NCBI GenBank assembly: GCA_047605165.1
Contig: JASGGG010000006.1
Span: 23 to 64,022 of the forward strand
From: Nocardioidaceae bacterium
GTDB taxonomy: Bacteria > Actinomycetota > Actinomycetes > Propionibacteriales > Nocardioidaceae
Direction of reading: 5' to 3'
DNA: 64,000 nt
In this document: piece after piece, positions 3,031 through 33,233 of the stretch
How positions within the stretch are numbered: position 1 is the stretch's first letter
How the letters are laid out: the number at the start of each line of letters is the position of its first letter
Notes under the pieces: model-generated
Told to the model about the DNA's origin: nothing
What the model saw: only the letters and a program-made list of their open reading frames with translations
The model's database searches: none
Translations under genes and position numbers: made by a program

Positions 3031-3072
3031 GCACGCCCACGCACGTCGCGTGTTCCCGTAAGACACTTTGGG

Positions 3073-3145: not shown

Positions 3146-3161
3146 CTGTTGAGTTATCCAG

Positions 3162-3206: not shown

Positions 3207-3230
3207 TGGTGGGCGTTGGCGCCGCTGGCC

Positions 3231-3350: not shown

Positions 3351-3387
3351 AGGAGTGCCTCCAAGGGCGGCGGTGGATGGGCTCCGG

Positions 3388-14759: not shown

Positions 14760-14814
14760 CCTCGTTCGCTCATCTCTGGGCTTGTCCTACTCATCGGGAC
14801 CCACTCGTCGGGGT

Positions 14815-16281
14815 TCACTTGTCCAGCACCGCTTCCATCACGGCCTTGGCGATCGGCGCGGCCAGGCCGCTGCCCGAGATCTGGTCGCGGTCCACGCCGG
14901 CGTCCTGCACCAGCACGGCCACCGCGACCTTCGCCTCGTCGGCGGGCGCGAAGGAGACGAACCAGGCGTACGGCGGGCGGTTCTTCGCGCTCTGCGCGGT
15001 GCCGGTCTTGCCGGCCACGCGTACGCCCGAGATCTGGGCGGTGGTGCCGGTGCCCTGGTCGACCACCGACACCATCATCTGGATCAGGTCGGTCGCCGAA
15101 GCCCGGCTCATCGCCCGCTTCCCCGGCAGTGGCTCGGGGTCGGTCTTGGCCAGCACCGACAGGTCGGGCGCACGCTCCTCCTCGACGAGGTACGGCTTCA
15201 TCACCTCGCCGTAGTTGGCGATCCCGGCGCCGACCATCGCCATCTGCAGCGGCGTCGCGGCCACGTTGTACTGCCCGATTGCCGACAGCGCGGTCTGGGG
15301 CTTGTCGAGCTTCTCGGGGAACACACTCTGTACCTGGCCGTTGAGGTCGTCGAGGTAGTGCTGGTCGAAGCCGAACGCCTCGGCCTGTTCGCGCAGCACC
15401 TTGTCGCCCAGGTCGAGGCCGATCGACCCGAACGACACGTTGCACGACACGTCCAGCGCCTGGGTCAGCGTGATCGGGTCGCCACCGCAGGTGCCGCCGT
15501 TCTCGTTGACCAGGTCGACCGTAGTCTGGGGCAGGTCGAGCTGTGCGCCACCCTTGACCTTCGTGGTCGGTGTGTAGCCGTGCTGCAGCGCCGCGGCGGC
15601 GGTGACCAGCTTGAAGGTCGACCCAGGTGGCAGCCGCAGCTGGATGCCGCGGTTCATCAGCGGCTCGTCGGCATCCGTGGTCAGCCGCTTCCAGTTCTTC
15701 TCTACCGAGGACAGGTCGTGACTGGCCAGCAGCCGGGGGTCGTACGTCGGTGACGAGACCATGGCGAGGATGCGTCCGGTCGCGGGCTGGATCGCGACCA
15801 CGGAGGCCTTCACGCCGGAGCCGAGCTTCCGGATTCCGTCGTAGGCTGCCGTCTGCGCGGCCGGGTCGATCGTCAGCGTGACCGACCCGCCCTTGGTCTG
15901 GCGATCCTTGACCAGGTCGGTGACCCGGTTGACGAACAGCCGGGAGTCGCTGCCCGACAGCACCGTGTTCTTGGTCTGCTCCACGGCGTTGCGACCGTAG
16001 AGGTAGCTGAACCAGCCGGTGACCTGGGCGTACTTGAAGGGCTGTGGGTACTTGCGCTGGAACTTGAACCGGTCCTTGGCCGGCACGCTCTGCGCGACGG
16101 CGTCTCCGGAGACGATGATCGCGCCGCGCTGGCGGGAAAACTCGGCATCGGTCACCCGGCGGTTGTCGGGGCGGTCGTTGAGGCTCGCGGCCTTGAAGTA
16201 CTGCAGGTAGGTGGCGTTGAGCAGCAGCGCGAAGAACATCAGTGCGCACACCACGGCGACGACGCGGATCGGGCGGTTCAC
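14815..16281 (-). CDS. pbpA: class B penicillin-binding protein (transpeptidase)
   Basis: N-terminal TM, PPGSTFK (SxxK), SCN and KTGTA motifs. It follows rodA in the conserved cluster. Confidence 0.93.
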   Translation of the reverse strand: MNRPIRVVAVVCALMFFALLLNATYLQYFKAASLNDRPDNRRVTDAEFSRQRGAIIVSGDAVAQSVPAKDRFKFQRKYPQPFKYAQVTGWFSYLYGRNAVEQTKNTVLSGSDSRLFVNRVTDLVKDRQTKGGSVTLTIDPAAQTAAYDGIRKLGSGVKASVVAIQPATGRILAMVSSPTYDPRLLASHDLSSVEKNWKRLTTDADEPLMNRGIQLRLPPGSTFKLVTAAAALQHGYTPTTKVKGGAQLDLPQTTVDLVNENGGTCGGDPITLTQALDVSCNVSFGSIGLDLGDKVLREQAEAFGFDQHYLDDLNGQVQSVFPEKLDKPQTALSAIGQYNVAATPLQMAMVGAGIANYGEVMKPYLVEEERAPDLSVLAKTDPEPLPGKRAMSRASATDLIQMMVSVVDQGTGTTAQISGVRVAGKTGTAQSAKNRPPYAWFVSFAPADEAKVAVAVLVQDAGVDRDQISGSGLAAPIAKAVMEAVLDK

Positions 16282-17720
16282 GGCACCACCACGACCTGGG
16301 TCTCGTCGTCCGATCCTTCGAGGGAGCGAGCATCGGGATCGGCTGGCTCGCTGGCACCGGCGATCGGGGTCAGGTCGAGCGGGGTGAGATCGGGCGGTGG
16401 CCGGCGCGCATGGTCGGAGATGCGCAGCAGCAGCGCGAGCACGACCCAGTTCGCGACCAGGCTGGAGCCGCCGTAGGACAGGAACGGTGTGGTCAGGCCG
16501 GTCAACGGGATGAGCTTGGTGACGCCGCCGACGACCACGAACACCTGCAGAGCGATCACCACCCCGAGGCCGGTCGCGAGCAGCTTGCCGAAGTTGTCGC
16601 GACAGATCAGCGCGGTGCGCAGGGCGCGCTCGACCAGCAGGCCGTAGAGCAGGATGATCGCGATCAGGCCGGTCAGGCCCAACTCCTCAGCGAACGCGCC
16701 GACGATGAAGTCGCTGTAGGCGAAGGGGATCTTGTCGGGTGAGCCCATGCCCAGGCCGCGGCCGAGGAGGCCACCCCACGCCATCCCGTACAGGGACTGG
16801 ATGATCTGGGTGAACACGTCCGGTTCCGCCCACGGGTCGAGCCAGCCGTCGACCCGCCTCTGCACGTGTCCGAACTGGGTATACGCCGCGAATGCGCCGA
16901 GCAGGAACAGAAGCGCGCCGACCACCAGCCAGCCGGGCCGCTCGGTCGCGACGTACAACATGATCACGAACAGCCCGAAGAACAGCAGACTCGAGCCGAG
17001 GTCACGCTGCCCGACCAGGATCACCATGCTGGCCGCCCACATCAGCAGCAGCGGCCCGAGGTCGCGGGCGCGGGGCAGGTCGATGCGGAGTACGCGGTGG
17101 CCGGCCAGGGCGAGCGCGTCGCGGTGCACCACCAGATAGCCGGCGAAGAACACGACCAGCAGCACCTTCGCGGCCTCACCGGGCTGGAAGCTGAAGCCGC
17201 CGATGCCGATCCAGATGCGGGCGCCGTGGATGGACTTCCCGATGCCCGGCAGCATCGGCACGATCAGCAACACGATGGAGGCCAGACCACAGGTGTACGT
17301 CGCGCGCGTGAGGAAGCGGTGGTCGCGCAGGATCAGCAGTACCCCGACGAACAACACCACGCCGACGGTCATCCATTGCAGTTGCTTGGCCGCCAGGTGC
17401 CCGACGCCGGGCATGTCGGTGAGGTCGAGGCGGTGGATCATCGCCAGGCCCATCCCGTTGAGGGCGGCCGCGATCGGCAGGATCACCGGGTCGCTGTAGG
17501 GCGCGACCCAACGGATCGTGATGTGGCAGGCGAGCAGCAGCCCGGCCAGCCAGAGCCCGTAGTTGACGATGTTGGCAGGGACCTGGTCCTGCGCGCCCAT
17601 GCCGACGGCGGCGTACGCTCCGATGCCGACGACCAGGCTCTCGACCAGCAGGAACAACTCGGCACCGCGCCGACGGCGGTGGACGAACCCGGTGCGTTGG
17701 GTGGGCGACGCGGTGCTCAT
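16278..17720 (-). CDS. rodA: FtsW/RodA/SpoVE family peptidoglycan polymerase
   Basis: Polytopic membrane protein ending ...TGLTTPFLSYGGSSLVANW. Its stop overlaps the pbpA start. Confidence 0.93.
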   Translation of the reverse strand: MSTASPTQRTGFVHRRRRGAELFLLVESLVVGIGAYAAVGMGAQDQVPANIVNYGLWLAGLLLACHITIRWVAPYSDPVILPIAAALNGMGLAMIHRLDLTDMPGVGHLAAKQLQWMTVGVVLFVGVLLILRDHRFLTRATYTCGLASIVLLIVPMLPGIGKSIHGARIWIGIGGFSFQPGEAAKVLLVVFFAGYLVVHRDALALAGHRVLRIDLPRARDLGPLLLMWAASMVILVGQRDLGSSLLFFGLFVIMLYVATERPGWLVVGALLFLLGAFAAYTQFGHVQRRVDGWLDPWAEPDVFTQIIQSLYGMAWGGLLGRGLGMGSPDKIPFAYSDFIVGAFAEELGLTGLIAIILLYGLLVERALRTALICRDNFGKLLATGLGVVIALQVFVVVGGVTKLIPLTGLTTPFLSYGGSSLVANWVVLALLLRISDHARRPPPDLTPLDLTPIAGASEPADPDARSLEGSDDETQVVVVP

Positions 17721-19243
17721 GGCGTCGCCTCGATGCAGTCGGGTGGAGCGATCGTCGGTGTCGGGCTGGCGGTGGGGGAGCTCGACGGTGTCTTGCTGGG
17801 GGTCTTGCTGGGCGCTTTGCTGGGGGTCGCAGCGGGGGTCTTGGTGGCCTTCTTCGACGGGGTCTTGGTCGGGCTGGCCTTCTTGGTGGATGCCGGCGGT
17901 GTGGGTGTCGGAGTCGCGGCCGACGGGGTGTCGCAGGTGCGGGCGAGCCCCATCAGGCTCTCGTCCATGATCCGCCGGGCGTCGGCCAGGCTGTCGGCGT
18001 CGATGCCGTCGCGTACCTGTTCGGCGTTGTAGGCGGGCAGCGACTCGATGGTGATCCGGGACCGCTCGACCACCGAGTTGAGCGAGACGCCGGGTGGATT
18101 GACGGCCACGCCGCGGAAGATCGTGACGTACCCGTCGGACACCGAGACGTAGTACTGCTTCTGGGTCCAGCGGTACGCGGCCGCGCCCAGCCCGACGATC
18201 AGCAGCAGGGTCAGGGAGAGGTACGCCAGCCGGCGCAGCCAGAGTAGCCGGCGGGGCGCCCGGAGTGCATAGCGCTGCTCCTCCGGATCGATGTCGTCGA
18301 TGTTGTCGACGAAGACGTCACCGCTCCAGTCGCCGTTACCGTCGCGGTCGGCTTCGCCGGGGACCGGAGGGAGGTCCGCGGCGGTGTGACGGGCGTCCGG
18401 GTCGAGCTTGCGGGGGAGGACGGCGGCCGACCCCACCAGCATCGCGCCGGCGGTCTGCCCGGCGGCCTCTTCGGCACTCGGTTCGCCGGCCTGGTCGCGC
18501 TCGTTTTCCCGGGGCACCCGTTCCACGTCTGCGACGAGCACGGTCACGTTGTCGGTGGTGCCCAGGTCGAGGGCGGTGCGCACGATCGCGACCGCCGCGT
18601 AGTCGACGGTGCCTCGGCCGAGCTCGGCCGCCATCCGGGTGTTGTCGAGCGGCCCCGAGGCGCCGTCGCTGCAGAACAACAGCCGGTCGCCGGGCTCCAG
18701 ATCGACGTGGAAGAGGTCAGGTGCTGTCTCGTGTACGCCGTCCACGGCCCGCAGGATCAGGTTGCGGTGCGGGTGGGTGCGCGACTCCTCCTCGGTGATC
18801 CGGCCCTCGTCGACCAGGGACTGTACGAAGGTGTGGTCCTTGGTGAGCTGGGTGATCTCGCCGTCGCGGAGCCGGTAGGCACGGCTATCGCCCACGTGCG
18901 CGACGCCGAGCCGGGTGCCGTCGAACAGCCCGGCGGTCACCGTCGTACTCGTGCCCATCAGCTCGGGGTCGCGCTCGACCAGTTCGGCGATGCGGTCGTG
19001 GACGCGATGCACCGCGCCGGCGAGGGCTTCCAGGAGGTCCCCGGCCGGAGGCTCGTCGAGGCGCTGAAGTGTCGTGATCGCGGTATGGCTGGCCACGTCG
19101 CCGTACGCCGCGCCGCCCACGCCGTCGGCGATCGCCAGCAGGTGGGGGCCGGCGTACCCGGCGTCCTGGTTGTCCTTGCGGTAGCGGCCCAGGTCGGACA
19201 GCGCCGAGTATCGGAGCCGGAGCCGGCTCGTCTCGCTGGCCAC
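17717..19243 (-). CDS. pstP: PP2C-family Ser/Thr phosphatase with TM and Pro/Thr/Lys-rich extracellular tail
   Basis: RKDNQDAGY, AIADGVGG, LLFCSDG and DNVTVLVADV motifs. The GTG start shares a G with the fhaB TAG stop at 19243. Confidence 0.92.
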   Translation of the reverse strand: MASETSRLRLRYSALSDLGRYRKDNQDAGYAGPHLLAIADGVGGAAYGDVASHTAITTLQRLDEPPAGDLLEALAGAVHRVHDRIAELVERDPELMGTSTTVTAGLFDGTRLGVAHVGDSRAYRLRDGEITQLTKDHTFVQSLVDEGRITEEESRTHPHRNLILRAVDGVHETAPDLFHVDLEPGDRLLFCSDGASGPLDNTRMAAELGRGTVDYAAVAIVRTALDLGTTDNVTVLVADVERVPRENERDQAGEPSAEEAAGQTAGAMLVGSAAVLPRKLDPDARHTAADLPPVPGEADRDGNGDWSGDVFVDNIDDIDPEEQRYALRAPRRLLWLRRLAYLSLTLLLIVGLGAAAYRWTQKQYYVSVSDGYVTIFRGVAVNPPGVSLNSVVERSRITIESLPAYNAEQVRDGIDADSLADARRIMDESLMGLARTCDTPSAATPTPTPPASTKKASPTKTPSKKATKTPAATPSKAPSKTPSKTPSSSPTASPTPTIAPPDCIEATP

Positions 19244-19761
19244 TACTTCCTCAGCTCCATCGTGGTCTTGCCGATGCGGATGCGCTGGCCGGGTGTGAGG
19301 GCGGTGGGCTGGGTGATGCGGTGGTTCTCGATGTAGGTGCCGTTGGTGGAGCCGAGGTCTTCGACGTACCACTGGTCGCCCGAGTTCGCGATGCGTGCGT
19401 GCCGGGTCGAGACGTAGTCGTCGTCGAGGCGGATCTGCGCGTCGGTGCCGCGTCCGATCAGCAGGGGAGCCAGGTCGAGGGAGATGGTGTCGCCGGCGTT
19501 GGGGCCGTCGACGATGTAGACGTGACTGGGCGCGCCGCGCGGCCGCTTCGTACTCCCCGCCTGCTTCGCAGCCTTGGCGTTGGCCTTCTGCTGTGCCTTC
19601 TGTTGGGCTTTGGCCTCGCGGCGGCCGGCCCGGGAGGTCTCGACGCGGGCACCGAACATGTCGCTGCGGATAACGGAGACGACGGAGAGCACGAACGTCC
19701 ACAGCACCACCAGGTAGGCGAGCCGGATCAGCAGCAGCGTGAAGTCAGTCGACATCGGCAC
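19243..19761 (-). CDS. fhaB: FHA domain protein FhaB/FipA
   Basis: N-terminal TM plus a C-terminal FHA domain (LIGRGTDAQIRLDDDYVSTRHARI...DLGSTNGTYI). Confidence 0.9.
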   Translation of the reverse strand: MPMSTDFTLLLIRLAYLVVLWTFVLSVVSVIRSDMFGARVETSRAGRREAKAQQKAQQKANAKAAKQAGSTKRPRGAPSHVYIVDGPNAGDTISLDLAPLLIGRGTDAQIRLDDDYVSTRHARIANSGDQWYVEDLGSTNGTYIENHRITQPTALTPGQRIRIGKTTMELRK

Positions 19762-20494
19762 CGCCGGTGACCAGGCGTACGACCAGCTCGGTGTTGCCGA
19801 TCTTGACTACGCTGCCGTCGCCGACCGCGGTGCGCTCGATGCGGTGGCCGTCGACCAGGGTGCCGTTGGTGGAGCCGAGGTCGATCACCCCGACCTTGGG
19901 CGGCTGATGGTCGGTGACGCGGATCTCGGCGTGCTTGCGGCTGACCCCGGGGTCGTTGATGCGCAGGTCGGCCTCCGGGCCACGCCCCACGATGAGGCCG
20001 GGCGGCAACACGAGCTGCTCGGCACCGTTGACCTCCAGCATCACGCTGACCTGCTTGGCGGCCTTGCTCGCCGCGCGTCGCGCGAAGAAGCCGCCTTCGT
20101 CGTCGGTCGCCGTAGGGGTCACCGCGGCGGTCGCCACGCCTTTGACCCGGAACCGCCCAGTCGACAGGTCGTCGGCGCGGTGGAAGTCGATCGCCACGTC
20201 GCCCGCGAAGACGTAGTGCTGTTCGTCGGCGTGCTCGCGCAGCAGCTCGGTCAGCTCTTGGCTGAGGGTGCCGGCGTACGGCGCCAGCCGGTCGTAGTCG
20301 GCCGACGCCAGCTCGATGTCGAACGAGTTGGGCACCAGCCGTCGATCACGCGACACGACCTGCGCGTTGTTGTCCACCTCACGCTGGAGTGCGGCGGCCA
20401 GCTCGACCGGCTGCACCGCGCTGCGGAAGGCCCGGGCGAACGTACCGCTGACCACCTGCTCGAGTCGGTTCTCGAATCGCTGCAGCAAGCCCAT
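19745..20494 (-). CDS. fhaA: FhaA (DUF3662 + FHA domain)
   Basis: MGLLQRFENRLEQVVSGTFARAF... with a C-terminal FHA domain (VGRGPEADLRINDPGVSRKHAEI...DLGSTNGT). Confidence 0.9.
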   Translation of the reverse strand: MGLLQRFENRLEQVVSGTFARAFRSAVQPVELAAALQREVDNNAQVVSRDRRLVPNSFDIELASADYDRLAPYAGTLSQELTELLREHADEQHYVFAGDVAIDFHRADDLSTGRFRVKGVATAAVTPTATDDEGGFFARRAASKAAKQVSVMLEVNGAEQLVLPPGLIVGRGPEADLRINDPGVSRKHAEIRVTDHQPPKVGVIDLGSTNGTLVDGHRIERTAVGDGSVVKIGNTELVVRLVTGGADVD

Positions 20495-20648
20495 GTCGCC
20501 TCCTCCCACTCCTTCGGCGTACGTCGTCGGTCGACGCGCATCGCCCTCCCCCAACTGGCGTACGCGCGTGCGTCTGATCGATCGTATCGGGGCCGGCCCG
20601 CCAGTTTGGGCAGGCTCAAGCAGGTGGGTTACCCTTACACGGCTTCTG

Positions 20649-20732
20649 GCGCGAGTGGCGGAATAGGCAGACGCGCACGGTTCAGGTCCGTGTGCCCGAA
20701 AGGGCGTGGGGGTTCAACTCCCCCCTCGCGCA
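20649..20732 (+). tRNA. tRNA-Leu(CAG), long variable arm
   Basis: GCGCGAGTGGCGGAATAGGCAGACGCGCACGGTTCAGGTCCGTGTGCCCGAAAGGGCGTGGGGGTTCAACTCCCCCCTCGCGCA, with anticodon loop TT-CAG-GT. Confidence 0.92.
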
Positions 20733-20753
20733 CGCGAAGGCAAGACGGTGGAA

Positions 20754-20775
20754 CCCCAGGTCATCCTGGGGTTTC
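20754..20775 (+). terminator. hairpin CCCCAGG-TCAT-CCTGGGG followed by TTTC, just after tRNA-Leu
   Basis: Perfect 7-bp stem followed by a short T tract. Confidence 0.4.
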
Positions 20776-20850
20776 GCTCATTTCTGGGCGTACCCTCATG
20801 GCACGTGTTAGCACGGCGTTAGCACCAGCACCTATACGGGAGGTGTTGAG

Positions 20851-22134
20851 ATGGCTTGGATCACCAAGCGCAAGCGCGCCGACGGCGGAGTCTCGGTGAC
20901 CGTCGTGTGGCGCCACGGAGGCGCGCGTGACGGCGCCTACCAGTCCGAGACTTTCGGGGCGGGCAGCGATGCCCAGAACCTCGCGCGTGCCGATGGCTTC
21001 AAGAAGATGGTCGACGCGGCTGGCCAGCGCTGGCCGGACGGCTGGGTCCGAGGTGAGGGCTTCGTCCGTCCGCCCGGCGAGACCGACCCGATGAAGACGC
21101 CACCGAGGTTCATTGACGTCGGTGAGAAGTACGTCCGCCAGATCGTCGATCTCTCGCCGGGCCAGCGCAAGAAGTACCTGGGCAACCTCCGGGTCCTGGA
21201 GAAGACCAAGGTGTCAGGGTCGTACGTCTTCACCCGGCCGGTCTCCGCGATCACCGAGGCTGACCTGAAGGCGTGGCTGATCGAGTGGGACAGGTCGCTG
21301 AAGACGAAAGCCAACTACCACGGCCTGATGCACGGCATCTTCGCCTACGCCCTCAAGCAGGGTCACCTGACGTCGAACCCGGCGATCGGGACCGCCCCGA
21401 AGCAGTCGCGGGTCAAGCAGTCACGACCCGAACTGCGGTTCTTGACGGAGAAAGAGCTCGGCCGGGCTGCCGAGCTGGCGGGGAAATACGGCGACCTGCT
21501 CGCGGTCACCGCGGCCACGGGGCTGCGGTTCGGTGAGGTGAGTGCGCTGTGGGTCAAGGATGTCGACCTGGCCCATCGCACGATCCGGGTGAACAAGGCG
21601 TGGAAGGAGGAGGGAGACGACGGCGCGACCGATATTCCGGGCTGGCTGGCCAAGCAACTGCGGCCCAAGCACACGATGCGCGACCATTACCTGGGCAACC
21701 CCAAGACCCCGAAGTCACGCAGGACGATCACCATCCCGCCAACCATCGCCAAGGTGTTGGCCCAGTGGATGAAGGACAAGGCGCCCGACGACTTCGTCTT
21801 CACCACTAGAACCGGCCGGCCGCTGCACAACGCCGACTTCTACACCCACCACTGGTCGAAGCTGCAGAAGAAGCTGGAGGCCGAAGGGGTCGCACGCTTC
21901 CGGTTCCACGACCTACGCCACACCCACGTTGCCTGGCTGATCGCGGGCGGCGCTCCGCTCCCGCACATCCAGGCAAGGTTGGGACACGAGTCGATCACCA
22001 CCACCATCGACACCTACGGACACCTCCTGCCCGCTGGCGACGAGCTGATCTCCAGCATCTTGGAGGCCGCGCTGGCGGGCGAGACCATCCGGCCAGCGCA
22101 GGTGGGGAAGCCGAGCGCGAGGATGAGCGAATGA
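20851..22134 (+). CDS. int: tyrosine-type site-specific integrase
   Basis: The C-terminal catalytic region includes ...RFHDLRHTHVAWLIAGGAPLPHIQARLGHESITTTIDTYGHLL (R..H..R..Y signature elements). It is adjacent to a tRNA. Confidence 0.92.
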   Translation: MAWITKRKRADGGVSVTVVWRHGGARDGAYQSETFGAGSDAQNLARADGFKKMVDAAGQRWPDGWVRGEGFVRPPGETDPMKTPPRFIDVGEKYVRQIVDLSPGQRKKYLGNLRVLEKTKVSGSYVFTRPVSAITEADLKAWLIEWDRSLKTKANYHGLMHGIFAYALKQGHLTSNPAIGTAPKQSRVKQSRPELRFLTEKELGRAAELAGKYGDLLAVTAATGLRFGEVSALWVKDVDLAHRTIRVNKAWKEEGDDGATDIPGWLAKQLRPKHTMRDHYLGNPKTPKSRRTITIPPTIAKVLAQWMKDKAPDDFVFTTRTGRPLHNADFYTHHWSKLQKKLEAEGVARFRFHDLRHTHVAWLIAGGAPLPHIQARLGHESITTTIDTYGHLLPAGDELISSILEAALAGETIRPAQVGKPSARMSE

Positions 22135-22736
22135 TTGAGCCCGGAGCCGTCCACGCCGGTCGATACGACGGAGACGACGTCGAGGCGGTCGCCGCCGCGC
22201 TCAAGGAGGCGGCCAGCCGCGCCGAGGTCGACGCGACCCCACTCGTCTTGAGCGTGGCCGCGGCAACCGGCGGAGTCGCTCGCCGACTTGATACCCGATT
22301 GAAGTCCCGCGAGTCGATCCTGGAGAAGCTCGGGAGGTTCCGCGGCCGCCGCACGCCGCAGTTCCGCCTTGAACGGTTCAACGACGCGCTGCGCTACACG
22401 ATCGTCTACCCCGACCTCATCTACTGGCGCGCGGTCCGTGCCAGCCAAACCGCTCTGGACGATCACGGCTGCGAGGTCCGGACTGTGCTCGACCGATGGG
22501 GTTCGGACAACTATCGCGGGATCAACATGACCGTGCGTGACCCGGCAGGCTTCGACTTCGAGATCCAGCTCCACACCGAGGTCAGCCTGGCAGCGGCGGA
22601 GCAGACCCACCCCAGCTACGAGGAGGAGCGCAAGCATCACCCCCGCTCCGCCCGAGCGCAAGAGCTGCGCACCTCGCAGAGCGAGGTCTGGGAACTCGTC
22701 CCGGTCCCACCAGGCGCCCCGGAGGTACACTCATGA
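22131..22736 (+). CDS. RelA/SpoT-fold nucleotide pyrophosphokinase domain protein (small alarmone synthetase-like; toxSAS candidate)
   Basis: TRLKSRESILEKL, NDALRYTIVY, NYRGINMTVR, FDFEIQLHT and THPSYEE follow the order of the RelA_SpoT synthetase motifs. Its ATGA overlaps the integrase stop. Confidence 0.7.
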   Translation: MIEPGAVHAGRYDGDDVEAVAAALKEAASRAEVDATPLVLSVAAATGGVARRLDTRLKSRESILEKLGRFRGRRTPQFRLERFNDALRYTIVYPDLIYWRAVRASQTALDDHGCEVRTVLDRWGSDNYRGINMTVRDPAGFDFEIQLHTEVSLAAAEQTHPSYEEERKHHPRSARAQELRTSQSEVWELVPVPPGAPEVHS

Positions 22737-22945
22737 ACATGGAGTACTACAAGTTCTCGGCGGGCCGAGGATACGAGTACGTCCGCCTCGACCGGGCAGG
22801 CATGACTGCCTGGTACTTCGACGACCTCGACCTGGAGTGGGTCGAGCAGCCCGCCTACTTCACGGAGATCATCTCCAACGGCGGCGGTGTGCCTATGACC
22901 GAGTCTGAGGCGCTTGACGCTGTCGGCCACCTCCAGTCGGCCTGA
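22733..22945 (+). CDS. small hypothetical protein (70 aa), candidate cognate antitoxin/immunity of the RSH gene
   Basis: Its ATGA overlaps the stop of the RSH gene. I recognise no family. Confidence 0.45.
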   Translation: MNMEYYKFSAGRGYEYVRLDRAGMTAWYFDDLDLEWVEQPAYFTEIISNGGGVPMTESEALDAVGHLQSA

Positions 22946-23024
22946 TCCGGCGTCTCCGCAGGTCGCACGGTCCCGCTGAATCAGCGGCACCGCTGAGCCT
23001 GCGCGTCGGCTCCCAGCCGAATCA

Positions 23025-23267
23025 TCAGAGCTTCGACCGCCGCCGGTCTCGCTGGAACGGCAGAAGCTGGGCCGTGACGGGCTGCTCGCAGGAGGTGATG
23101 AACTCGTCGAGGTATTCGATCTTGAATCGGATGTGCTTGCCGACCCTTGCGTGGCGGATCTTGCCGTCGCGGACGGCGTCGGCGACCCAGCGTTCGGGCA
23201 CGTTGAGGTACGCCGCTGCCTCGGCTGTGTCGAGCAGCGGTTGACGGGCTGGCGCGGGTGTGGCCAC
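23025..23267 (-). CDS. excisionase-type helix-turn-helix DNA-binding protein
   Basis: LLDTAEAAAYLNVPERWVADAVRDGKIRHARVGKHIRFKIEYLDEFI is a MerR/Xis-like HTH_17 pattern. Confidence 0.75.
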   Translation of the reverse strand: MATPAPARQPLLDTAEAAAYLNVPERWVADAVRDGKIRHARVGKHIRFKIEYLDEFITSCEQPVTAQLLPFQRDRRRSKL

Positions 23268-23303: not shown

Positions 23304-23504
23304 TCAGCTGAGGTGCTGGCGGCCTTCGGCGCTGTTGATCCACTCCTTGACGCGGCTCGTCCGATAGACGACGCGGCGGCCGAGTCGGAAGCCGTGGGGC
23401 GGTTGGCCCAGGTGGCGGCGCCAGCGCAGGCTGTCGACGCTCATGCGGCAGATCTTGGCGACCTCCTCGATGAACAGCAGCGGGTCTTCGGGTTCGGGTG
23501 TCAT
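23304..23504 (-). CDS. AlpA/Xis-family helix-turn-helix protein (66 aa)
   Basis: MTPEPEDPLLFIEEVAKICRMSVDSLRWRRHLGQPPHGFRLGRRVVYRTSRVKEWI. The upstream extension of the ORF looks non-coding. Confidence 0.7.
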   Translation of the reverse strand: MTPEPEDPLLFIEEVAKICRMSVDSLRWRRHLGQPPHGFRLGRRVVYRTSRVKEWINSAEGRQHLS

Positions 23505-23610
23505 GTGCTTCTCCTGTCTCTGGTCTTCTGGGGTGACCAAGTGATCAGGCGGGGTCTGAGTGGACACCGCCGGTGGTGGTTGCCTTTCAGCGTGCTCAGG
23601 CAACGCACCA

Positions 23611-23962
23611 AAACACGCCCGTCCCGGCTGCGCCCGTCCTGCCCGATCGGGGAGGGCGCAGGACGGGCGTTGGGACGGGCGCGGGGTGTTTGCGCTGGTC
23701 AGCGCGTTCTCGGGCATCGCCCCTCCTTTCGTAGGTAAAACCTCTGTCGGCGCTGTTGCCGAGCTGTTGGTGAGGTGTTCCGGGCGGGTCGCCGGGCACA
23801 CCTCGCTCGCCCCGACGCGCACGTTGTAGGTGTGCGCCCGTCCCCAAGGGGACAGGACGGGCGTTACCGGATGCGTTCCCCCTGTCCGCGTTCTGGAGGG
23901 GGAACCTTGGGGGAACCTCGCTCCCGGTTCCTGCGTCGTTGCAGGTCAGCGTGCGTTCCCCC
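23611..23962. promoter_or_regulatory. iteron/inverted-repeat-dense non-coding block (candidate oriT and/or operator array)
   Basis: GCCCGTCC/GGACGGGC occurs six times as three inverted pairs (23617, 23632, 23661, 23673, 23836, 23855). GTTCCCCC/GGGGGAAC occurs four times (23875, 23898, 23909, 23955). No convincing ORF spans 23505-24104. Confidence 0.5.
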
Positions 23963-24104: not shown

Positions 24105-27100
24105 TCAGAAGCCGATGCCCGGTCCCTGGCGGTCGGCTCCGGGGCCGTACGTTGGTATCGGGTCAGGGGCCTGTAGCCGGCGCCGGGCTGCGGCGTCGTG
24201 TTCGCGGGCTGCTCGCAAGCGTGCGGCAACACGAGCAGCTTCCTGGGCGGCTTCCCGGTCGGCGGCCCACTGGTCGTGTTCGGCATCCAATCGTCCGGCC
24301 GGGAGGACACGGATCTCGGGGGCGCGGGTGAGGGTGTGGACGCGCTGGTCGGCGACGCGCACCTGCGGGGCAAGCCTGTCGAGGTCGGCCTGGACCTGGT
24401 CCAGTAGTTCGGGCAGATCCGGGTGATAGGCCACCGGCGCGTAGGGCCGCAGCCTCGCCGCAAGATCGTCCTGGTCTGCGCGGAGCGCAGCCTTGGCGTC
24501 GTCGACGACCCGACCGGCGCTGCGGAGCCTTGCTCGGAGGAGTGGGGCTTCGGGGTGCGCCCGTGCGGTGGCGTGCTGTGCGACTTGGGTGATCGTGGCC
24601 TGGAGACGATCCCGCTCGCCGTAGCCGATCTGGCGGCGGACCTGCTCGGGGTCGCCGGATAGCTCAGGCAGAAGGGGCCGCCACTTCTCAGCCCACCTGT
24701 TGAGGACGTCGTGGGCATCGCGGACCTGGCGGCGGTGCAGCCCGAGTGGCCCGGCACCGTCGTGGATCGTCGTGAGGGCATCAGCGACGGCGGGCTGATC
24801 GGCGTTCCACCCTCGCCGCAGGTCGGCGATGGTGTTCTCGGTCTCTGCGGTCATGGCCGCATCCAGGTCCCGTACCGTCGACTGGATCCGGTTCAGCCGA
24901 CGGATCGCCCCGTCGAGGCGATGACGTAGTTGTGTCTGCCTGGGTGCGGATTCCTCGCGGATCGCGCGCACGGCTTCGGTCTGCTGCCGCTGCTGGTCGA
25001 GCCGCTCCCACCGGGTGGTGAGGTCGGCCCGGACCGTCCAAGCGGCACGGAGCCGGTCGAGCACGACGTCGATGGGTCGTTGGGGTGCGTACCGTTCCAT
25101 CTCTTCGGCGGCCTGCTTCGCTGCGTGGGCTGGCCCGAGGTCGGCACGGTCGTGGCCCATGACCTGGTCCCAGATAACGCGAGCTTGGTCTACGTCCTCG
25201 GCCACGATGTGGGCGATGTTGTTGTCGCGTCCGCGTGTCATCCCGACGTAGGCCGCCGAGGCCGACGTGGTCTCCGCGATCAGCATGTGCCCGGTGCTGG
25301 TCGTCTCGCCCTGGGCGCCGTAGACCGTGGTGGCGTAGGCCAGCTCAACCTGGGTCCGGGCGTACGACGCTGGCACGCTCCGGGCGGCGGCGAACCGTTC
25401 CCGCCCCGCAGGGGTCAGGGTGAGCGAGCCGTCCTCACCGACGGCGGCGACGGTCCACGAGTCGCGGTTGGCGACCCCGAGGTCGTGGTCGTTGAGTCGG
25501 GTCGCGACTCGATCCCCGACACCGATGCGCTCCCCAGCCTCGGTGAACACCACCCGAGTGTCATCGACCACGCCACTGGCGACACGCTGGTCACGGATGA
25601 TCCCGTTCAACGCCGCCACCTGGGCACGCGAGTCGGCTATCACCAACAGCCCAGAGCCTGCGCCGGGAGCTGATGCTACTTCTGCTGCGACCGCGTGCAG
25701 CCGCTCGACCTCGGAGGCATGGACGTGGATGTGGCCGCGGGCGAGGAGGGCGTCGAACACCTCCCCAGAAGCCTCCCCAACATGCTCACCAGACGGCTCA
25801 CCAAGTCTGGTCCCGCGGCGCATCGCCAAGGAGATCGCGGCATAGTCGGGCTCGGCGAAGCGGTGCACCACATCGAGTTCGACGACGGCCTCGGGTGCGG
25901 CCCATCGGGCTGCGAGGTCGAGTACGCCGCCGCGACCGACTGCGGGGAGCTGATGGCGATCCCCGACGAGCGCGATCCGGGCGCCGGTCCGGTCAGCGAC
26001 TTGGAAGAGGGCGTGAGCGGTGTCCTGGTCGAGCATGCCCGCCTCGTCGACGAGCAACAGGTCGCCCTTGCCGAGCGTGGTCGCGGGCGGCTGGGTCGGT
26101 TCGTGAGTCCCGCGGCCGTCGTCATCCCACCGCCAGCCGTACTCGTGCACCAGGGCCGCCACAGAGCGAGCCTCGGCAGCAGTCTTGGCGGCGACGTGGG
26201 CAGCCTTCAACGTCGGCGTCACCACGACCAGCCGGTGACCCTGCCGCTCCAGCAGATCCCGAGTCGCGGCCAGAGTCGTCGTCTTCCCAGCCCCGGCTGC
26301 ACCCTCGACCACCACCAGCCGTCCAATCCCCGCAAGGACAGCGACGGCGTCCCGCTGCGCTTGGTCCAGCCCGGCCAGCAACGACACGGACTGTGCTGGC
26401 TCGAGCCGACCGGCGGCGCGCTGGACCATCGCCGCGACCAGGTCGGCCTCGACCGCCAACACACGCAGCGAGGTCAGCGAGCGAACGTGCTCGGGCCCGC
26501 CCTGCTGATCCAACAGGGGCACACTCAGAGCGACGGCACGCGCGGTGATGTCCTCGGCCAACTCGATCCGCACACTTACCTCGGCGACCAGGCCGGTCGC
26601 GGCGATCCACTCCTCGACCCCGCCCCGGAGGTCCGCGGCATTCCAGGCCGACCTGGCTGCACCCAGCCGGGAGACCACAAGATCGGCCGCCCCGTCCCGG
26701 TCCAGCGACCCGACCGCCGGCCCCATGGGCGGGATCGGCAGACCGGGCTGCGCGGGGTCGCGGTAGCCAAGCTGGTGCAACACGGCATTCCACACCGCGA
26801 CCATCTCGGCCCCGTCCGGCACCACCGCGTGCTGCGGCCCGCTGGTTGAGTTCTGCTTCTGCGGCCGGGCCTCGGCCCACGCTCGCCGGTCCCATCCCTG
26901 CCGTAGACGTGGCCCGGGCTCCTCGCCGGGGTGGTCGGCGCGCCAATCGGCCTCGTAGCGGCCCAGGTTGCGCCCGATCTGCGCCGTACGCGCCGAGAAC
27001 TGGCCCACATACGGCGCCAGCTCGACTACCTCAGCCGTGGCGGGGTCCATCGTGAACCCCTGCGCCGCCAAAACGGCCCGGAACTCGGGGTCGGTGGCGA

Positions 27101-27702
27101 CCGCGGCGTGACCGATGCCGTTGATCGCCGCGACCATGTCCCGCACCCCGACCGAGTGCAGACCCCGCCACTTCCCCTCGGCGGACACCCTGGCGTTGAC
27201 CTGCAAGTGAAGGTGCCGGTGCGGGTCACCGGCACGGGAGGTGTAGTGCCGGATCACCGCCGCCTCGATCTGCTCCACTGGGACCTGGACCTGCCGGCCA
27301 CGCGGCCCGACTCGGGTCGTGGCGTGTTCGGCCAGCCAGCCGATGATCTGCTCCGCTGCCCGATCCTGAGCAGCATCCAGTGCCTCGGAGACCTCCGGAT
27401 GCAACGCCGCGGCCAGCGACCAGGTCTTGGGTCCGTTGACGGTGACCTCGACGAACCGCAACGCCTTGCCGTCGTCGCGAAGCCGGCCCTTCGCCTTGCC
27501 GGTGTCGACGTCGTAGCCGGCGACCCAGCGCTCGTAGGTCTCACCGTCCAGCTCACCCTGCCCGCGCGGCCGATGCGCCCGGTGAGGCGGTGTAGCGGGT
27601 CGCGACCCCTGAGCCCTCGGCCAGGTAGTAGTCGTCGGCGCGGGAGTGGTCGGCCTCGACGTAGGCCCGCGCCGCAGCCGCAGACCCGCGGTAGAACTTC
27701 AC
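24105..27702 (-). pseudogene. MobF/TrwC-type relaxase fused to RecD-like helicase (TraA-like), interrupted by one frameshift near 27553
   Basis: The N-terminal frame reads VKFYRGSAAAARAYVEADHSRADDYYLAEG... and stops at a TGA at 27553-27555. The adjacent frame continues ELDGETYERWVAGYDVDTGKAKGRLRDDGKALRFVEVTVNGPKTWSLAA...HRHLHLQVNARV. The helicase Walker A is EGAAGAGKTT. Confidence 0.8.
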
Positions 27703-28026
27703 CCCACCATGCACACCGACCATCCCACAGTTGCTCTGGACGAGGCCCGCAACGAGTGCCAACAACGTCCAACGACTACCCTGAAAATGACGCTCGGCCC
27801 GCCCAGGTGGGGCGGACCGATCTACGTACTTCGTAGCATGCGTGCAGCGGATTTGGGCAGGTCAGACGGCGTGTTGCGAGCAGAACTCGGGTAAGGCTGA
27901 GGGTCGAGCTGGTGGTCGTTGGTGGCAGTGATTGAGTCGACCAGCGGGTGGGGTCAGTGGGGCAGGCGACCACCTGCTCCCTGCGGCGGAGACCAACGGT
28001 GGTCGGTCCGTCGAAACCGGTGTCCG

Positions 28027-28449
28027 CTAGTCAGCGAGTCGCACGACGGTGCACCCGGACAATACGGCGGATTCGAGGATCGCCATCGCCCCGTCGGAGA
28101 CGCAGAGATTGAAGGACTGGTCCAACCAGAAGTCAGAGCGTCCGGGTGCGCCGGTAACCTGAAGCCATCGGTAATCTCGGTGCTCGGCCTTCCCGTAGAG
28201 CTGTCGGTAGTTGTCGCTGGGTCGGACGGGGGCCTTCGTCAGCTTGAAGCCGTCCAGGTGGGCCTTCTTAAGTCGGGATCCGAGTTGGTCGCTCACGAGG
28301 AACACAGGGAACGACGTGATCAGCTCATCGGTCTCCGGTTGGTCCAGCACGTACTCGAGGCGCTTGACCTTCGGCGGGTGGGTGCTGGTGTCGAGGTCGG
28401 TGTCGGGGCCGAGTTCGCCGGCCACTTGGGGGTCGAGTCGGTAGGGCAT
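28027..28449 (-). CDS. candidate immunity protein for the upstream nuclease toxin
   Basis: This 140-aa cytoplasmic-looking protein starts 2 nt after the toxin stop. The arrangement is typical of polymorphic toxin-immunity pairs. Confidence 0.55.
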   Translation of the reverse strand: MPYRLDPQVAGELGPDTDLDTSTHPPKVKRLEYVLDQPETDELITSFPVFLVSDQLGSRLKKAHLDGFKLTKAPVRPSDNYRQLYGKAEHRDYRWLQVTGAPGRSDFWLDQSFNLCVSDGAMAILESAVLSGCTVVRLAD

Positions 28450-28451
28450 CG

Positions 28452-30404
28452 CTAGCCGATCTTAGGAGTGAAGAGGTGGCCGAACTTACGGTCGATCTCC
28501 GTGGCCTCGTTGAGGATGTCCTCACGAGTCGTCGATGATGCGGGATGGGTCTTGTAGAACTCGTCCCACGCCTTCCGAATGTCGCTCAGATGCAGCGAGG
28601 AATTCAGCTCGTTGGGGATGCCACGCAGGTTCTCGAGCGAGTGGATCTCCGAAGCCGTGAACTTGCCCGGGTACCGGGTGAGCACGCTCTGCTCGATTGC
28701 GTGGTGCACGACGACCTCGCCCTTGAGTTCGGGATTGGCCGCGAAGAACGTTGCCCGGTAGTTGGTGCTTGTAGCTTCGCCGACTGTCGCTCTGACGGTG
28801 GCGACGCTCCGAGCGGCTTCGGTCTCAGCCTTGACTACCGCGGCGCTCGGTCGTGCAGCCTCGGCGACCTTGGCCACGCGCACTGCCTCGGTGGCGACCT
28901 TGGCAGCCTTGGCGATCTTGGTGAAGGCGAGACCCGGGACGGCGGCGGCCAGCGAGAGGCCGGCTTCGGTGTAGTCGCCTTGGACGGTGTACCAGGTCGC
29001 GTTCGTCGCTGCAGCACCGATGCCGATGGCGTCGAAGGGCGGAGGAGCGAAGGTCGAGAGAGACAGGATGTCGAGCACGTTGTGACCCCAGTGCTCGATC
29101 CAGTGCCACAGCTCCTTGGCGACCGCGACGACGCAGTGCCCGTAGTCGAGCGGGTTCCAGGAACAGCCGCTCCCTTCCTTCATGCTCTTGGCCAGACCCT
29201 GCAGCACCTGCGAGTCGCCGAGCGGCGTGCCGCCGGCTGCCTCGGCCACGGCTTCGGTCACTCCGCCGGTCGAGTCGATGGCGGAGTTCAGGGCGGTGAG
29301 CGTCGCGGTCATCCCGACGTTGTTGCCGTCGGATGCGGTCGGGAAGTGGTGCTCGAAGAACAGGTAGTGGGTGAACTTTCCGACCGGGTGATCCGAGCCG
29401 TCGTAGGAGATGTTCTCCGTCCCGGGCTCGAAGTCAGTGAAGGCCCAGTCGCTCGCGGTCGGGTTCGAGGTGAGCGCCGCCGTCATGGCGAGCATGCCGT
29501 CGGTCAGGTAAGCCCCGTCAGGCGCGGGCGCATACTTCGCATCGTCCAGACGCGCCTCGGACCAGCCGTTGTCGCCGTGGGCTTGGTCGTACTCCGTGTA
29601 GGTCGTCGTCAGTGCCATTAGGAAGTTGTTCGACCAGTAGCCGCGGGAGATCAGCAGGAGCAGGTTCTGCTTGTTGGCGATGTCCTGGTCAGTGCGCTGC
29701 TTGGTGGCTGCGTCCGGCGGATCGGCGGACTCGCTGTACAAATCCGTCGGAGCGGTTGTCGCCTGGATAAGGTTGTCCGACCATGCCAGCGGGAGCGATT
29801 CATCGCCGGTGCCGTGAGTTGCTAAGGCCAGGGTCCCCGCAAGGTCGGTCAGGGTGTTCTCGTAGGCGGTTGTGTCAATGCCTGCCCGGAACGGCGTCGT
29901 GGTGCCGGCGACCGAAGCTAGCGCGTCGCCAAGCATGCGCGGGGTGGTCTGCGATGCGAAGAGGTAAGCAAAGTCGGGGCTACCGCGGTGGGCCGCGAGC
30001 TGCTTGTCGAGTGCCGCAAGGTCCGGCTTCCGGAGCGCCTTGACGGCCGCGGCTGCCTCGCGGTGGTCCTTCCACTGCTGATCGTGGAAGGTCGGGAGTT
30101 GCGTGTAGGCGATCGCGGCTCCCGCGATGATGGCCAGGATGATTGCCGTGGCCACCGCGGCGATCCATCGCGGTCGCTTCGGTTTGCTGAAGGTCAGGTT
30201 GGTCCGGCGCTTGTCGGGCTGCTCGTCGTCCAGCTTCCAGCACTTGGCCTCCCACCTGCCGACGACATGGTCGCGCCGGGAGTGGCGTACGCGCTTCGTC
30301 CTGAGGTTCTGTCGCGGGGTGCGCGAGGAGGCGCCGCCCTCACGGGCTGCGCGACTCTCTGGCCCAGCGGTTGTCAACTCTGCTTCTCCTGACGACTCCG
30401 TCAC
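28452..30404 (-). CDS. membrane-anchored polymorphic-toxin-like protein with C-terminal xHH-type HNH/EndoVII-fold nuclease domain
   Basis: A basic N-terminus is followed by one TM segment (WIAAVATAIILAIIAGAAIAY) and a domain of about 400 aa of unknown fold. A pre-toxin-like linker (GDYTEAGLSLAAAVPGLAFTKIAKAAK) precedes the tip, which reads EVVVHHAIEQ...ENLRGIPNELNSSLH (HH..N..H spacing). Confidence 0.6.
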   Translation of the reverse strand: MTESSGEAELTTAGPESRAAREGGASSRTPRQNLRTKRVRHSRRDHVVGRWEAKCWKLDDEQPDKRRTNLTFSKPKRPRWIAAVATAIILAIIAGAAIAYTQLPTFHDQQWKDHREAAAAVKALRKPDLAALDKQLAAHRGSPDFAYLFASQTTPRMLGDALASVAGTTTPFRAGIDTTAYENTLTDLAGTLALATHGTGDESLPLAWSDNLIQATTAPTDLYSESADPPDAATKQRTDQDIANKQNLLLLISRGYWSNNFLMALTTTYTEYDQAHGDNGWSEARLDDAKYAPAPDGAYLTDGMLAMTAALTSNPTASDWAFTDFEPGTENISYDGSDHPVGKFTHYLFFEHHFPTASDGNNVGMTATLTALNSAIDSTGGVTEAVAEAAGGTPLGDSQVLQGLAKSMKEGSGCSWNPLDYGHCVVAVAKELWHWIEHWGHNVLDILSLSTFAPPPFDAIGIGAAATNATWYTVQGDYTEAGLSLAAAVPGLAFTKIAKAAKVATEAVRVAKVAEAARPSAAVVKAETEAARSVATVRATVGEATSTNYRATFFAANPELKGEVVVHHAIEQSVLTRYPGKFTASEIHSLENLRGIPNELNSSLHLSDIRKAWDEFYKTHPASSTTREDILNEATEIDRKFGHLFTPKIG

Positions 30405-32208: not shown

Positions 32209-33233
32209 GGCTCCGGAGCCACTTCGTGATGAGCGAGGAGGCGCTTGGCTAGACCTGGACCTTCGCTGACCAGGCCGGCGGGACGCAGGATGCGGGTCTC
32301 TGGCCCGGAGGCGAGGGTGATCAGGCCGACGCGCCAGCCGACCGGCTCCAGCAGGTCGACATCGACGGTGAATCCGTCGGCTGTGTCGGCGATGACCGCG
32401 CTGCCTTCGGCGTATTCATCGAGCGCCCAACGGGCGCGGTGGGGCAGCTGCACGCGGACGGTGGTTGTTGCGCGTTGCTCCCTGAGTAGTACCTCAGCGT
32501 CGGCGCCGGGCGCGAAAGTCTCATCGAGCACCTCCGCGTCGCGGATGTTGGAGACGAGGTAGGTGCGGAGCCTGCCGTTCGCGGTGACCGGCCCAGCGTC
32601 GACCTCCCAGCCTCGCACCGTCGTCTGCACGAGCCGCCAGGGTTCGATGGTGCGCTCGACGACCCCTGTCTCCCACTGTCGGGAGTAGCGGATGCGGACT
32701 TTGCGTCGCTGGGCCGAGGCTTGTTGTAGGCAGTCGAGGAACGCTGGGCGCCAGAGGTTGTCTGTGAGGGACTCGGTGTCGCCGCCCATGAGTGTCTCGG
32801 CGATGATCCAGACTGCGGATTCGAGGACCGGGTCGCCTTCCGGCGCTTGGAGGTCGAGGGCCGCGCTGGCGGCTGCGTGGATGAGGGCGAGCTCTCCGGC
32901 GTCGAGGTACTCGACACCGAGGTCCTGGGGCTCTTCCACGAGACGCACGACGAGCGCACTTGCGGGGTCGGCCTCGCGGTTCTCATCGTCTTCGGGGGCC
33001 TCGTCCTGCTCGTCGTTTGCGCCGGTCCATTCCAGGACTCGTCGGCGGGTCAGGCCCATCCAGATGCCGATGTCGGCCGCGTAGTAGGCGAGCAGGTCTT
33101 CGCGCAGCTCGTCGGCGTCGATGCCGCACTCATCGGCCAGCATTGAGAGCGGCACGCCGTCGGGGTGGGCGTGGAGTTGGTCGAAGACATCGAGCAATCG
33201 TGCGATGCGACGTACGTAGGACGGTGTGGCCAT
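32202..33233 (-). CDS. WYL-domain transcriptional regulator, PafC-like
   Basis: N-terminal wHTH (RRIARLLDVFDQLHAHPDGVPLSMLADECGIDADELREDL) is followed by an acidic insert. The WYL-type core reads VRIRYSRQWETGVVERTIEPWRLV, with a C-terminal extension. Confidence 0.75.
   Translation of the reverse strand: MATPSYVRRIARLLDVFDQLHAHPDGVPLSMLADECGIDADELREDLLAYYAADIGIWMGLTRRRVLEWTGANDEQDEAPEDDENREADPASALVVRLVEEPQDLGVEYLDAGELALIHAAASAALDLQAPEGDPVLESAVWIIAETLMGGDTESLTDNLWRPAFLDCLQQASAQRRKVRIRYSRQWETGVVERTIEPWRLVQTTVRGWEVDAGPVTANGRLRTYLVSNIRDAEVLDETFAPGADAEVLLREQRATTTVRVQLPHRARWALDEYAEGSAVIADTADGFTVDVDLLEPVGWRVGLITLASGPETRILRPAGLVSEGPGLAKRLLAHHEVAPEPW

Follow-up and report, generated by a model that had tools for sequence, protein, structure and literature searches.

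A probable toxin-immunity cassette of the Apk1/Tas1-SaEAS clade beside the integrase gene of a tRNA-Leu-associated island in a Nocardioidaceae genome

Toxic enzymes of the RelA/SpoT homologue (RSH) family are the subject of an active field, which covers effectors of type VI and type VII secretion systems (T6SS and T7SS), MuF toxins of phages, CapRel defence and the secreted enzyme SaEAS. To our knowledge, only two structural ways of neutralising toxic RSH enzymes are known so far, namely blockage of the acceptor site by Tis1-like domains and of the donor site by pZFD. That a toxic small alarmone synthetase (SAS) can come with a small inhibitor is already known as a general scheme, and small putative immunity open reading frames (ORFs) have been described after T7SS-type members (PMC12691689). 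Here, we describe a two-gene locus that follows this scheme and is coupled to an integrase gene. It lies in a 64,000-nucleotide stretch (the window) of contig JASGGG010000006.1, from a metagenome-assembled genome (MAG) of a soil Nocardioidaceae bacterium with a genomic G+C content of 68%. Three genes are arranged head to tail, all on the plus strand.

20851 to 22134, plus strand: tyrosine integrase gene (int), 427 amino acids (Pfam Phage_integrase, E 5.9e-24); its stop codon overlaps the SAS start codon (ATGA).
22131 to 22736, plus strand: stand-alone SAS with a SYNTH domain only, 201 amino acids, predicted toxin.
22733 to 22945, plus strand: predicted cognate immunity (antitoxin) protein of an unnamed family, 70 amino acids (imm).

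We read the last two genes as a toxin-immunity cassette, akin to a toxin-antitoxin (TA) module of type II, that is carried next to the integrase gene as cargo of a mobilisable island, one that has a relaxase, is integrated at tRNA-Leu and is probably decaying. We give this reading a probability of roughly 60%.

The closest described protein is SaEAS of Streptomyces albidoflavus (PDB 8vx3; Ahmad et al., mBio 2025, PMC12691689), which is the best match of the SAS in sequence (about 30% identity) and in structure. The two proteins have in common a SYNTH-only architecture, the same active-site residues and a conserved C-terminal 'VPVPPG' tail. However, SaEAS is a secreted protein with a Sec signal peptide and lacks an immunity gene, whereas the SAS is without a signal peptide and its gene is coupled to that of a conserved small partner. 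Apk1/Tas1, a (p)ppApp synthetase effector of the Pseudomonas aeruginosa T6SS, belongs to the same toxin-domain clade (6ox6, Foldseek E 6e-7), and its gene, like that of the SAS, is followed by one for a small protein, the inhibitor Tis1. Apk1 differs in being the C-terminal domain of a PAAR/Rhs-type T6SS carrier, whereas the SAS stands alone, and the 70-amino-acid partner has no sequence or Foldseek match to Tis1 among PDB chains. The same toxin domain is also found in polymorphic toxins of the LXG/T7SS, Rhs, DUF4157, MuF and XopAD types (for example AaEAS; PMC12691689, Fig. 6). In most cases a small ORF that can be aligned with the 70-amino-acid partner comes next. With their N-terminal trafficking domains, these toxins presumably reach other cells, whereas the SAS is bare and integrase-coupled. 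Lastly, the toxSAS TA modules of phages, prophages and islands (FaRel, FaRel2, PhRel, PhRel2 and CapRel; Jimmy et al., 2020; Kurata et al., 2021; Dominguez-Molina et al., 2024, PMC11782079) resemble the cassette in that a single-domain RSH enzyme comes with a neutralising protein encoded next to it. These modules have a growth-arrest function; the toxicity of our cassette is predicted. Their enzymes belong to another branch of the RSH tree (the template-modelling (TM) score of FaRel2 is about 0.39, and it is unmatched by sequence), and their antitoxins are pZFD, PanA, Tis1-like or SAH hydrolase domains, none of which was detected in the cassette.

An earlier note on this DNA, made from the sequence alone, had quoted a series of synthetase motifs in the 201-amino-acid protein, and all of them are present: RLKSRESILEKL at residues 56-67, DALRYTIV at 85-92, YRGINMTV at 128-135, FEIQLHT at 143-149 and HPSYEE at 160-165. 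The note's assignment of an RSH synthetase fold without hydrolase or regulatory domains was borne out by Pfam, an AlphaFold2 model and Foldseek; Pfam found no HD hydrolase, regulatory or any other further domain in the protein. In the model (predicted local distance difference test score, pLDDT, 85.9; predicted TM score 0.83), the SAS adopts the SYNTH fold, a central antiparallel beta-sheet flanked by helices. The best 34 Foldseek matches in the PDB (E<=1e-3) were RSH synthetases only, namely SaEAS, Tas1, RelP, RelQ and FaRel2, with Rel falling just under the cut-off. SaEAS (8vx3) ranked first (TM 0.76, E 2e-12), followed by Tas1 and then by RelP and RelQ (TM 0.5-0.6, 15-20% identity); FaRel2 was a weak match (TM 0.38-0.40).

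The catalytic residues of the SAS are intact. The active-site residues of SaEAS, D121, R124, N169, E182 and Q184 (PMC12691689), correspond to D85, R88, N132, E144 and Q146 in the alignment with 8vx3. Across the alignment of homologues, K58, K66, D85, R88, N132, E144 and Q146 were invariant. The SAS also has an R-x-K-x3-S-x3-K helix, formed by R56, K58, S62 and K66; in FaRel2 this basic helix holds the ATP phosphates (PMC11782079). From these alignments, we propose that R56, K58, S62, K66, D85, R88, N132, E144 and Q146 are the catalytic and ATP-binding residues.

In phmmer searches of PDB sequences, the SAS matched 8vx3 at E 4.4e-16 and Tas1 (6ox6) at E 0.06, and no FaRel2 or CapRel chain was found at E<=10. 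Residues 14-199 align with the C-terminal domain of XopAD/SKWP type III effectors (NCBIfam, E 3e-28), and the protein also aligns with the C-terminus of a MuF-type head-morphogenesis family (PHROGs, E 2e-10). A stand-alone actinobacterial protein, A0A653XCT7_9ACTN, is 39% identical (E 9e-35) and is listed among the 1,369 published Apk1/Tas1 homologues (PMC12691689, Files S3b/S4). An exhaustive phmmer search of 1.84 billion representatives returned 2,630 relatives (781 at E<=1e-10), a mix of stand-alone forms of 175-210 amino acids and C-terminal domains of proteins of 400-4,000 amino acids. About four representative clusters are closer than ~48% identity. Thus, the immediate subfamily is rare, whereas the domain family is large. 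A tblastn search of plasmids and phages recovered the known XopAD/RipS and MuF carriers and a few matches on Rhodococcus and Streptomyces plasmids.

Because SaEAS is the best match in sequence and by Foldseek, and FaRel2 and CapRel are either unmatched or reach a TM of only 0.38-0.40, we place the SAS, on these comparisons, in the published Apk1/Tas1-SaEAS toxin clade and probably not with FaRel, PhRel and CapRel. The earlier note had proposed kinship with the latter; by phmmer against the PDB and by Foldseek, the nearest relatives lie in the Apk1/Tas1-SaEAS clade instead. The SAS is probably not a member of any named toxSAS subfamily (FaRel, FaRel2, PhRel, PhRel2 or CapRel). Judged by its relatives, it is a new, divergent, stand-alone member of the Apk1/Tas1-SaEAS clade that lacks the 'exported' feature of that clade.

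This placement bears on the likely target of the enzyme. If the SAS were a tRNA-targeting toxSAS of the FaRel2/PhRel/CapRel type, it would pyrophosphorylate the 3'-CCA ends of tRNAs and act in abortive infection, with a phage trigger freeing the toxin from its inhibitor. The stand-alone toxSAS architecture, the adjacent small inhibitor and the location on a mobile island with NERD-UvrD and WYL cargo would suit such a role, and the RSH fold is in principle compatible with a tRNA acceptor (PMC11782079). However, we consider this mechanism quite unlikely because the SAS is distant from FaRel2 and CapRel (no sequence similarity to their structures at E<=10; Foldseek TM 0.38-0.40 compared with 0.76 for SaEAS) and because its partner has no match to the fold of pZFD, the domain that neutralises tRNA-targeting toxSASs (PMC11782079). 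Furthermore, the characterised members of the nearest clade are all nucleotide pyrophosphokinases. A fused toxin-antitoxin of the CapRel kind was rejected, as the SAS has no C-terminal pZFD.

The fold and the catalytic residues are also common to RelP and RelQ, as would be expected if the SAS were a benign housekeeping or regulatory synthetase of the stringent response and the downstream ORF were unrelated or a regulator. We rejected this explanation, which we regard as highly improbable, because of the toxin-clade affinity of the SAS, its mobile context and its obligate partner. RelP and RelQ are much more distant from the SAS than the toxin clade is. The gene is rare, its island was acquired horizontally, sibling islands have it with a frameshift or have lost it to a replacement, and it is always tied to a small partner that diverges with it.

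Both members of the cassette look like real genes. The GC1/GC2/GC3 values are coding-like (0.72/0.49/0.83 for the SAS ORF and 0.61/0.41/0.86 for the 70-amino-acid ORF), and homologues were found for both. In addition, the ratio of nonsynonymous to synonymous substitution rates (dN/dS) of the small gene is 0.12, with dS 0.66, between the window and its closest homologue, in locus L001 (homologous loci are designated by L numbers), which indicates purifying selection. NCBI annotates the two genes as QM655_02150 (SAS) and QM655_02155 (imm), both as hypothetical proteins; QM655_02155 begins at the next methionine there and has 68 amino acids. The ATGA overlaps described in the earlier note are real: the SAS start codon at 22131 overlaps the integrase stop codon (TGA, 22132-22134), and the imm start codon at 22733 overlaps the SAS stop codon (TGA, 22734-22736). 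In the sequence, a Shine-Dalgarno-like AGGA/GGAGG lies 7 nucleotides 5' of both start codons. From this arrangement we infer that int, SAS and imm are co-transcribed.

The 70-amino-acid protein has no meaningful match in Pfam, NCBIfam, PHROGs or PADLOC, and a profile built from 16 small ORFs found nothing relevant among PDB sequences (best E 1.3, RNA polymerase). Its AlphaFold2 model (pLDDT 81.6) has a five-stranded sheet and a C-terminal helix. Foldseek found nothing significant for this model in the PDB (best E 0.9), with 6ox6, 8pu1, 8pu3 and 7ztb not among the matches listed, and only borderline matches to uncharacterised phage proteins in BFVD. As neither sequence nor fold has a match in the PDB, the 70-amino-acid protein appears to resemble neither Tis1 nor the pZFD antitoxins.

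We found that the small ORF accompanies the SAS in homologous loci, as the earlier note had required of a genuine partner. All close SAS homologues in metagenomes (L002/L003, L005-L007, L008-L010 and L011) have an overlapping or abutting ORF of 70-71 amino acids, which is 50-63% identical to the protein in the window. More distant SAS domains in the genome collection (26-43% identity to the window SAS) are found on LXG/T7SS-like (L013), Rhs-like (L022), DUF4157 (L024) and MuF (L026) carriers and as short or stand-alone forms (L015, L016, L021 and L025). In each of these eight loci an ORF of 63-103 amino acids lies directly 3' of the SAS. The small ORFs have a recognisable pattern of an N-terminal YY strand, a central invariant tryptophan and a C-terminal 'ISEdEA' helix, and hhalign linked the close and the distant sets with 94.9% probability (E 4e-8). 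Those after L013, L015, L021, L022, L024, L025 and L026 align with the 70-amino-acid partner; for those after L004 and L016 homology is less certain. The LXG/T7SS-like carrier L014 is an exception, as its SAS is followed by an unrelated ORF of 173 amino acids. No such small ORF was found downstream of the SaEAS-like Streptomyces genes with a Sec signal (L017-L020), which agrees with the published statement that exported forms are without immunity genes (PMC12691689).

The linkage also holds when the small family is taken as the starting point. In a profile search, the family to which the 70-amino-acid protein belongs reached at least 1,712 clusters, every one of them labelled 'hypothetical'. 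In three look-ups from members of this family, covering four loci, a SAS homologue was immediately upstream each time. The suggestion in the earlier note that the pair may be a new toxSAS/antitoxin subfamily was therefore overstated, because the partner belongs to a large unannotated family that spans many lineages; it remains true that this family is uncharacterised.

Two metagenomic contigs, L011 and L001, carry sibling islands that share their backbone with the island in the window. L011 keeps the ATGA overlap between int and SAS, and its integrase is 84% identical to that of the window; xis is 66% identical, and the SAS and imm products are about 53% and 54% identical. Thus, SAS and imm have diverged in parallel. 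In L011 (1451-2051), a 2-nucleotide deletion breaks the SAS reading frame after about 60 codons, and the downstream small ORF is intact. In L001, identities to the window are 77% for int, 86-88% for imm and 83% for xis, and DNA homology runs up to the last int codons and resumes at codon 3 of the small ORF. In the interval (1487-2046), the SAS alone has been replaced exactly by a 76-amino-acid BrnT-like ORF and a 108-amino-acid ribbon-helix-helix (RHH) protein with similarity to NikA-like proteins and to CopG and RelB antitoxins. As L001 carries this BrnT-like/RHH pair in place of the SAS, the integrase-proximal slot seems to host toxin modules.

The cassette is also found apart from an integrase, in L002, L005 and L008. 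In L008 (118-1288), 270 bp with a terminator hairpin but no integrase separate the same tRNA-Leu(CAG) from the SAS-imm pair downstream of it; the locus may be what remains of an island at this attachment site. In L002 and L005, the pair lies among metabolic genes, without mobility or secretion genes. The earlier note had called direct coupling to an integrase gene unusual. This holds only in part: the coupling recurs in one sibling island, L011, and the cassette also occurs without an integrase in the three loci just named.

Taken as comparative evidence, these results support the view that the SAS and the 70-amino-acid protein are a cognate pair. The linkage is conserved, SAS and partner diverge in parallel next to more conserved flanking genes, and the partner is absent beside the Sec-exported relatives. 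The replacement of the SAS by another TA-like pair and the order of decay, in which the toxin is lost first and the inhibitor is kept, point the same way.

Based on these results, we propose a model that addresses the activity of the SAS, its control by the partner and the role of the pair. The 201-amino-acid SAS would be a cytoplasmic, domain-only RSH synthetase of the Apk1/Tas1-SaEAS clade. We predict that it transfers pyrophosphate from ATP to the 3'-OH of purine nucleotides, and that this yields (p)ppApp and/or (p)ppGpp at a rate sufficient to stop growth.

The second part of our model concerns the 70-amino-acid protein. It would be translationally coupled to the SAS by the ATGA overlap, and we predict that it is a stoichiometric binder and inhibitor of the SAS.

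The final part of our model involves the role of the pair. As it would be read through from the integrase gene, the pair has its most plausible role in stabilising the island (addiction), in abortive infection or in both. Such a role would fit the bare domain, the coupling to the integrase and the defence cargo of the island.

Several observations weigh against our reading of the cassette. The Pfam RelA_SpoT profile (PF04607), with which the earlier note had proposed to check the SAS, matched residues 55-166 (model positions 1-111 of 113) at 18.6 bits (E 0.0023) and so missed its gathering cut-off of 27 bits. PADLOC had no match to the SAS or to the 70-amino-acid protein. With regard to the putative co-transcription of int, SAS and imm, a scan for sigma-70-like promoters, which carries little weight for an actinobacterium, found none. 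Acceptor specificity is not readable from sequence, and among the characterised relatives some make only (p)ppApp, some only (p)ppGpp and some both. Most members of the SAS family are trafficked polymorphic toxins. Finally, the small gene is kept in L001, where it is under purifying selection, and in L011, so protection from incoming toxins fits at least as well as addiction.

The last two points also bear on a different explanation, in which the SAS is an antibacterial effector that is exported or delivered by contact (an 'EAS'; Ahmad et al., 2025). Having left the producer through a conjugation-associated or type VII-like route, it would poison neighbouring cells, and the 70-amino-acid protein would protect kin. 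The island has a TrwC relaxase, and imm has been retained, under purifying selection, after loss of the toxin (L001) or its frameshift (L011). Orphan immunity genes are typical of interbacterial toxins. In addition, most of the clade consists of trafficked toxins (LXG/T7SS-type, Rhs, DUF4157, MuF, XopAD and Sec), and Streptomyces homologues without a signal peptide lie beside the conjugation genes TrwB, TrwK and TrwI (PMC12691689). However, the SAS is a bare SYNTH domain. No LXG, WXG, PAAR, Rhs, MuF, DUF4157 or XopAD-repeat module was found in its 201 amino acids, and its N-terminus, MIEPGAVHAGRYDGDD, judged by eye, is acidic and polar, with no hydrophobic signal peptide or other export signal seen. 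Furthermore, the scanned island ORFs yielded no gene for a type IV secretion system (T4SS), a T7SS or an FtsK-like translocase, the relaxase gene is in two pieces, and the cassette is also found in L002 and L005 without mobility or secretion genes. We therefore consider an exported effector unlikely and favour the intracellular toxin-immunity cassette.

The main interest of the locus is the uncharacterised inhibitor family. A literature search for toxSASs on integrative elements returned nothing specific. Relative to the literature searched, three points are new. The small ORFs appear, from their profiles, to form one large family. By sequence and predicted fold, this family seems unrelated to Tis1 and pZFD. 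Third, the cassette sits in an integrase-coupled slot in which the toxin gene turns over. Joining these points, the 70-amino-acid family might be a third type of RSH-toxin inhibitor, built of a sheet and a helix and unrelated to Tis1 and pZFD, that serves the whole Apk1/EAS clade (at least 1,700 clusters) and has been captured here as an integrase-coupled module. We put this forward as tentative and, as a whole, doubtful. If it were true, expression of the pair would be tied to transcription of the integrase gene, and the pair could police loss of the island or fire during excision or infection.

The cassette is a compact pair of 201 and 70 amino acids from the Apk1/SaEAS clade, with a predicted inhibitor that matches neither Tis1 nor pZFD. 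Members of this inhibitor family lie after hundreds of trafficked SAS toxins, so that many 'hypothetical' immunity genes would gain an annotation once the pair is solved. A 70-amino-acid inhibitor would also give a handle for purifying SAS enzymes that are otherwise too toxic; wild-type SaEAS could not be purified by its authors because it has no immunity protein (PMC12691689). Finally, the window (intact toxin), L011 (frameshifted toxin) and L001 (replaced toxin), with the small gene always kept, form a natural series for the turnover of a toxin cassette beside an integrase.

The cassette lies on an island with the following further features.

20649 to 20733, plus strand: tRNA-Leu(CAG), found by ARAGORN, 117 bp upstream of the integrase gene.
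22947 to 23009, no strand assigned: GC-rich stem-loop flanked by imm and xis, which are convergent (folded as RNA, -37.1 kcal/mol; z -2.77 compared with shuffled sequences).
23025 to 23267, minus strand: HTH_17 excisionase-like gene (xis) of the island backbone (Pfam HTH_17, E 2.4e-13), 83% identical in L001 and 66% in L011.
23304 to 23822, minus strand: second HTH_17-like small regulator of the backbone (Pfam HTH_17, E 1.3e-4 at residues 118-164), with a homologue in L001.
24105 to 27765, minus strand: MobF/TrwC relaxase-helicase, apparently split (Pfam TrwC and AAA_30), 53% identical to the L001 relaxase.
28027 to 30404, minus strand: gene for a 650-amino-acid protein with an N-terminal transmembrane segment and a C-terminal 'VVHHAIEQ...', directly followed by an ORF of 140 amino acids.
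30553 to 33233, minus strand: NERD-UvrD helicase and WYL regulator (PADLOC RTasNERD-Hel, E 1e-29; NERD+UvrD candidate, E 5e-22).
34718 to 35958, plus strand: IS3-family transposase pair (HTH_Tnp_1 and rve), near the probable right end of the island.

The tRNA-Leu(CAG) gene is the probable integration site of the island, on the side of its left attachment site (attL). The core palindrome of the stem-loop at 22947-23009 is kept in L001; the stem-loop may terminate transcription in both directions and would then close the int-SAS-imm unit, although it has no U-tract. The true start of the second regulator is probably internal to the ORF at 23304-23822. In the main relaxase ORF (24105-27461), the TrwC match begins at model position 74, and the tyrosine motif 'DDYYLAEG' belongs to the N-terminal piece, which forms an ORF of its own with 70 amino acids (27553-27765); the gene is either a frameshift pseudogene or the product of an error in the MAG assembly. 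The 650- and 140-amino-acid proteins have no match in Pfam, NCBIfam or PADLOC, and their genes may be a second toxin-immunity pair on the island. The start of the NERD-UvrD gene overlaps the end of the upstream gene for the WYL-domain regulator (32202-33233), and the two genes are defence-like cargo.

Several hallmarks of integrative elements are present, namely a tyrosine recombinase gene by a tRNA gene, two HTH_17 genes and a TrwC relaxase gene. Flanking attachment repeats and intact transfer functions were not found: the relaxase is split, and no right attachment site (attR) was detected in the window by searches for direct repeats, for the tRNA 3' end (with up to 3 mismatches) or for exact 11-mers from 20640-20850. 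Thus, the island looks like a decaying integrative mobilisable element with defence-type cargo.

Core-looking genes begin at about 36 kb and include a sigma factor, an IclR regulator and genes of a meta-cleavage pathway. Near the other end of the window, genes for tRNA-Ala(TGC) and tRNA-Ile(GAT) are adjacent on the minus strand (3071-3461), as in the spacer between 16S and 23S rRNA genes. An rRNA operon is therefore probably located at about 1-8 kb, and some of the ORFs there are likely to be spurious. The genes to the left of tRNA-Leu (12999-20554, minus strand) include those for a PP2C phosphatase and FHA-domain proteins. We take these to resemble the conserved actinobacterial FhaA/FhaB/PstP cluster, in which case the island would sit in a conserved, origin-proximal neighbourhood.

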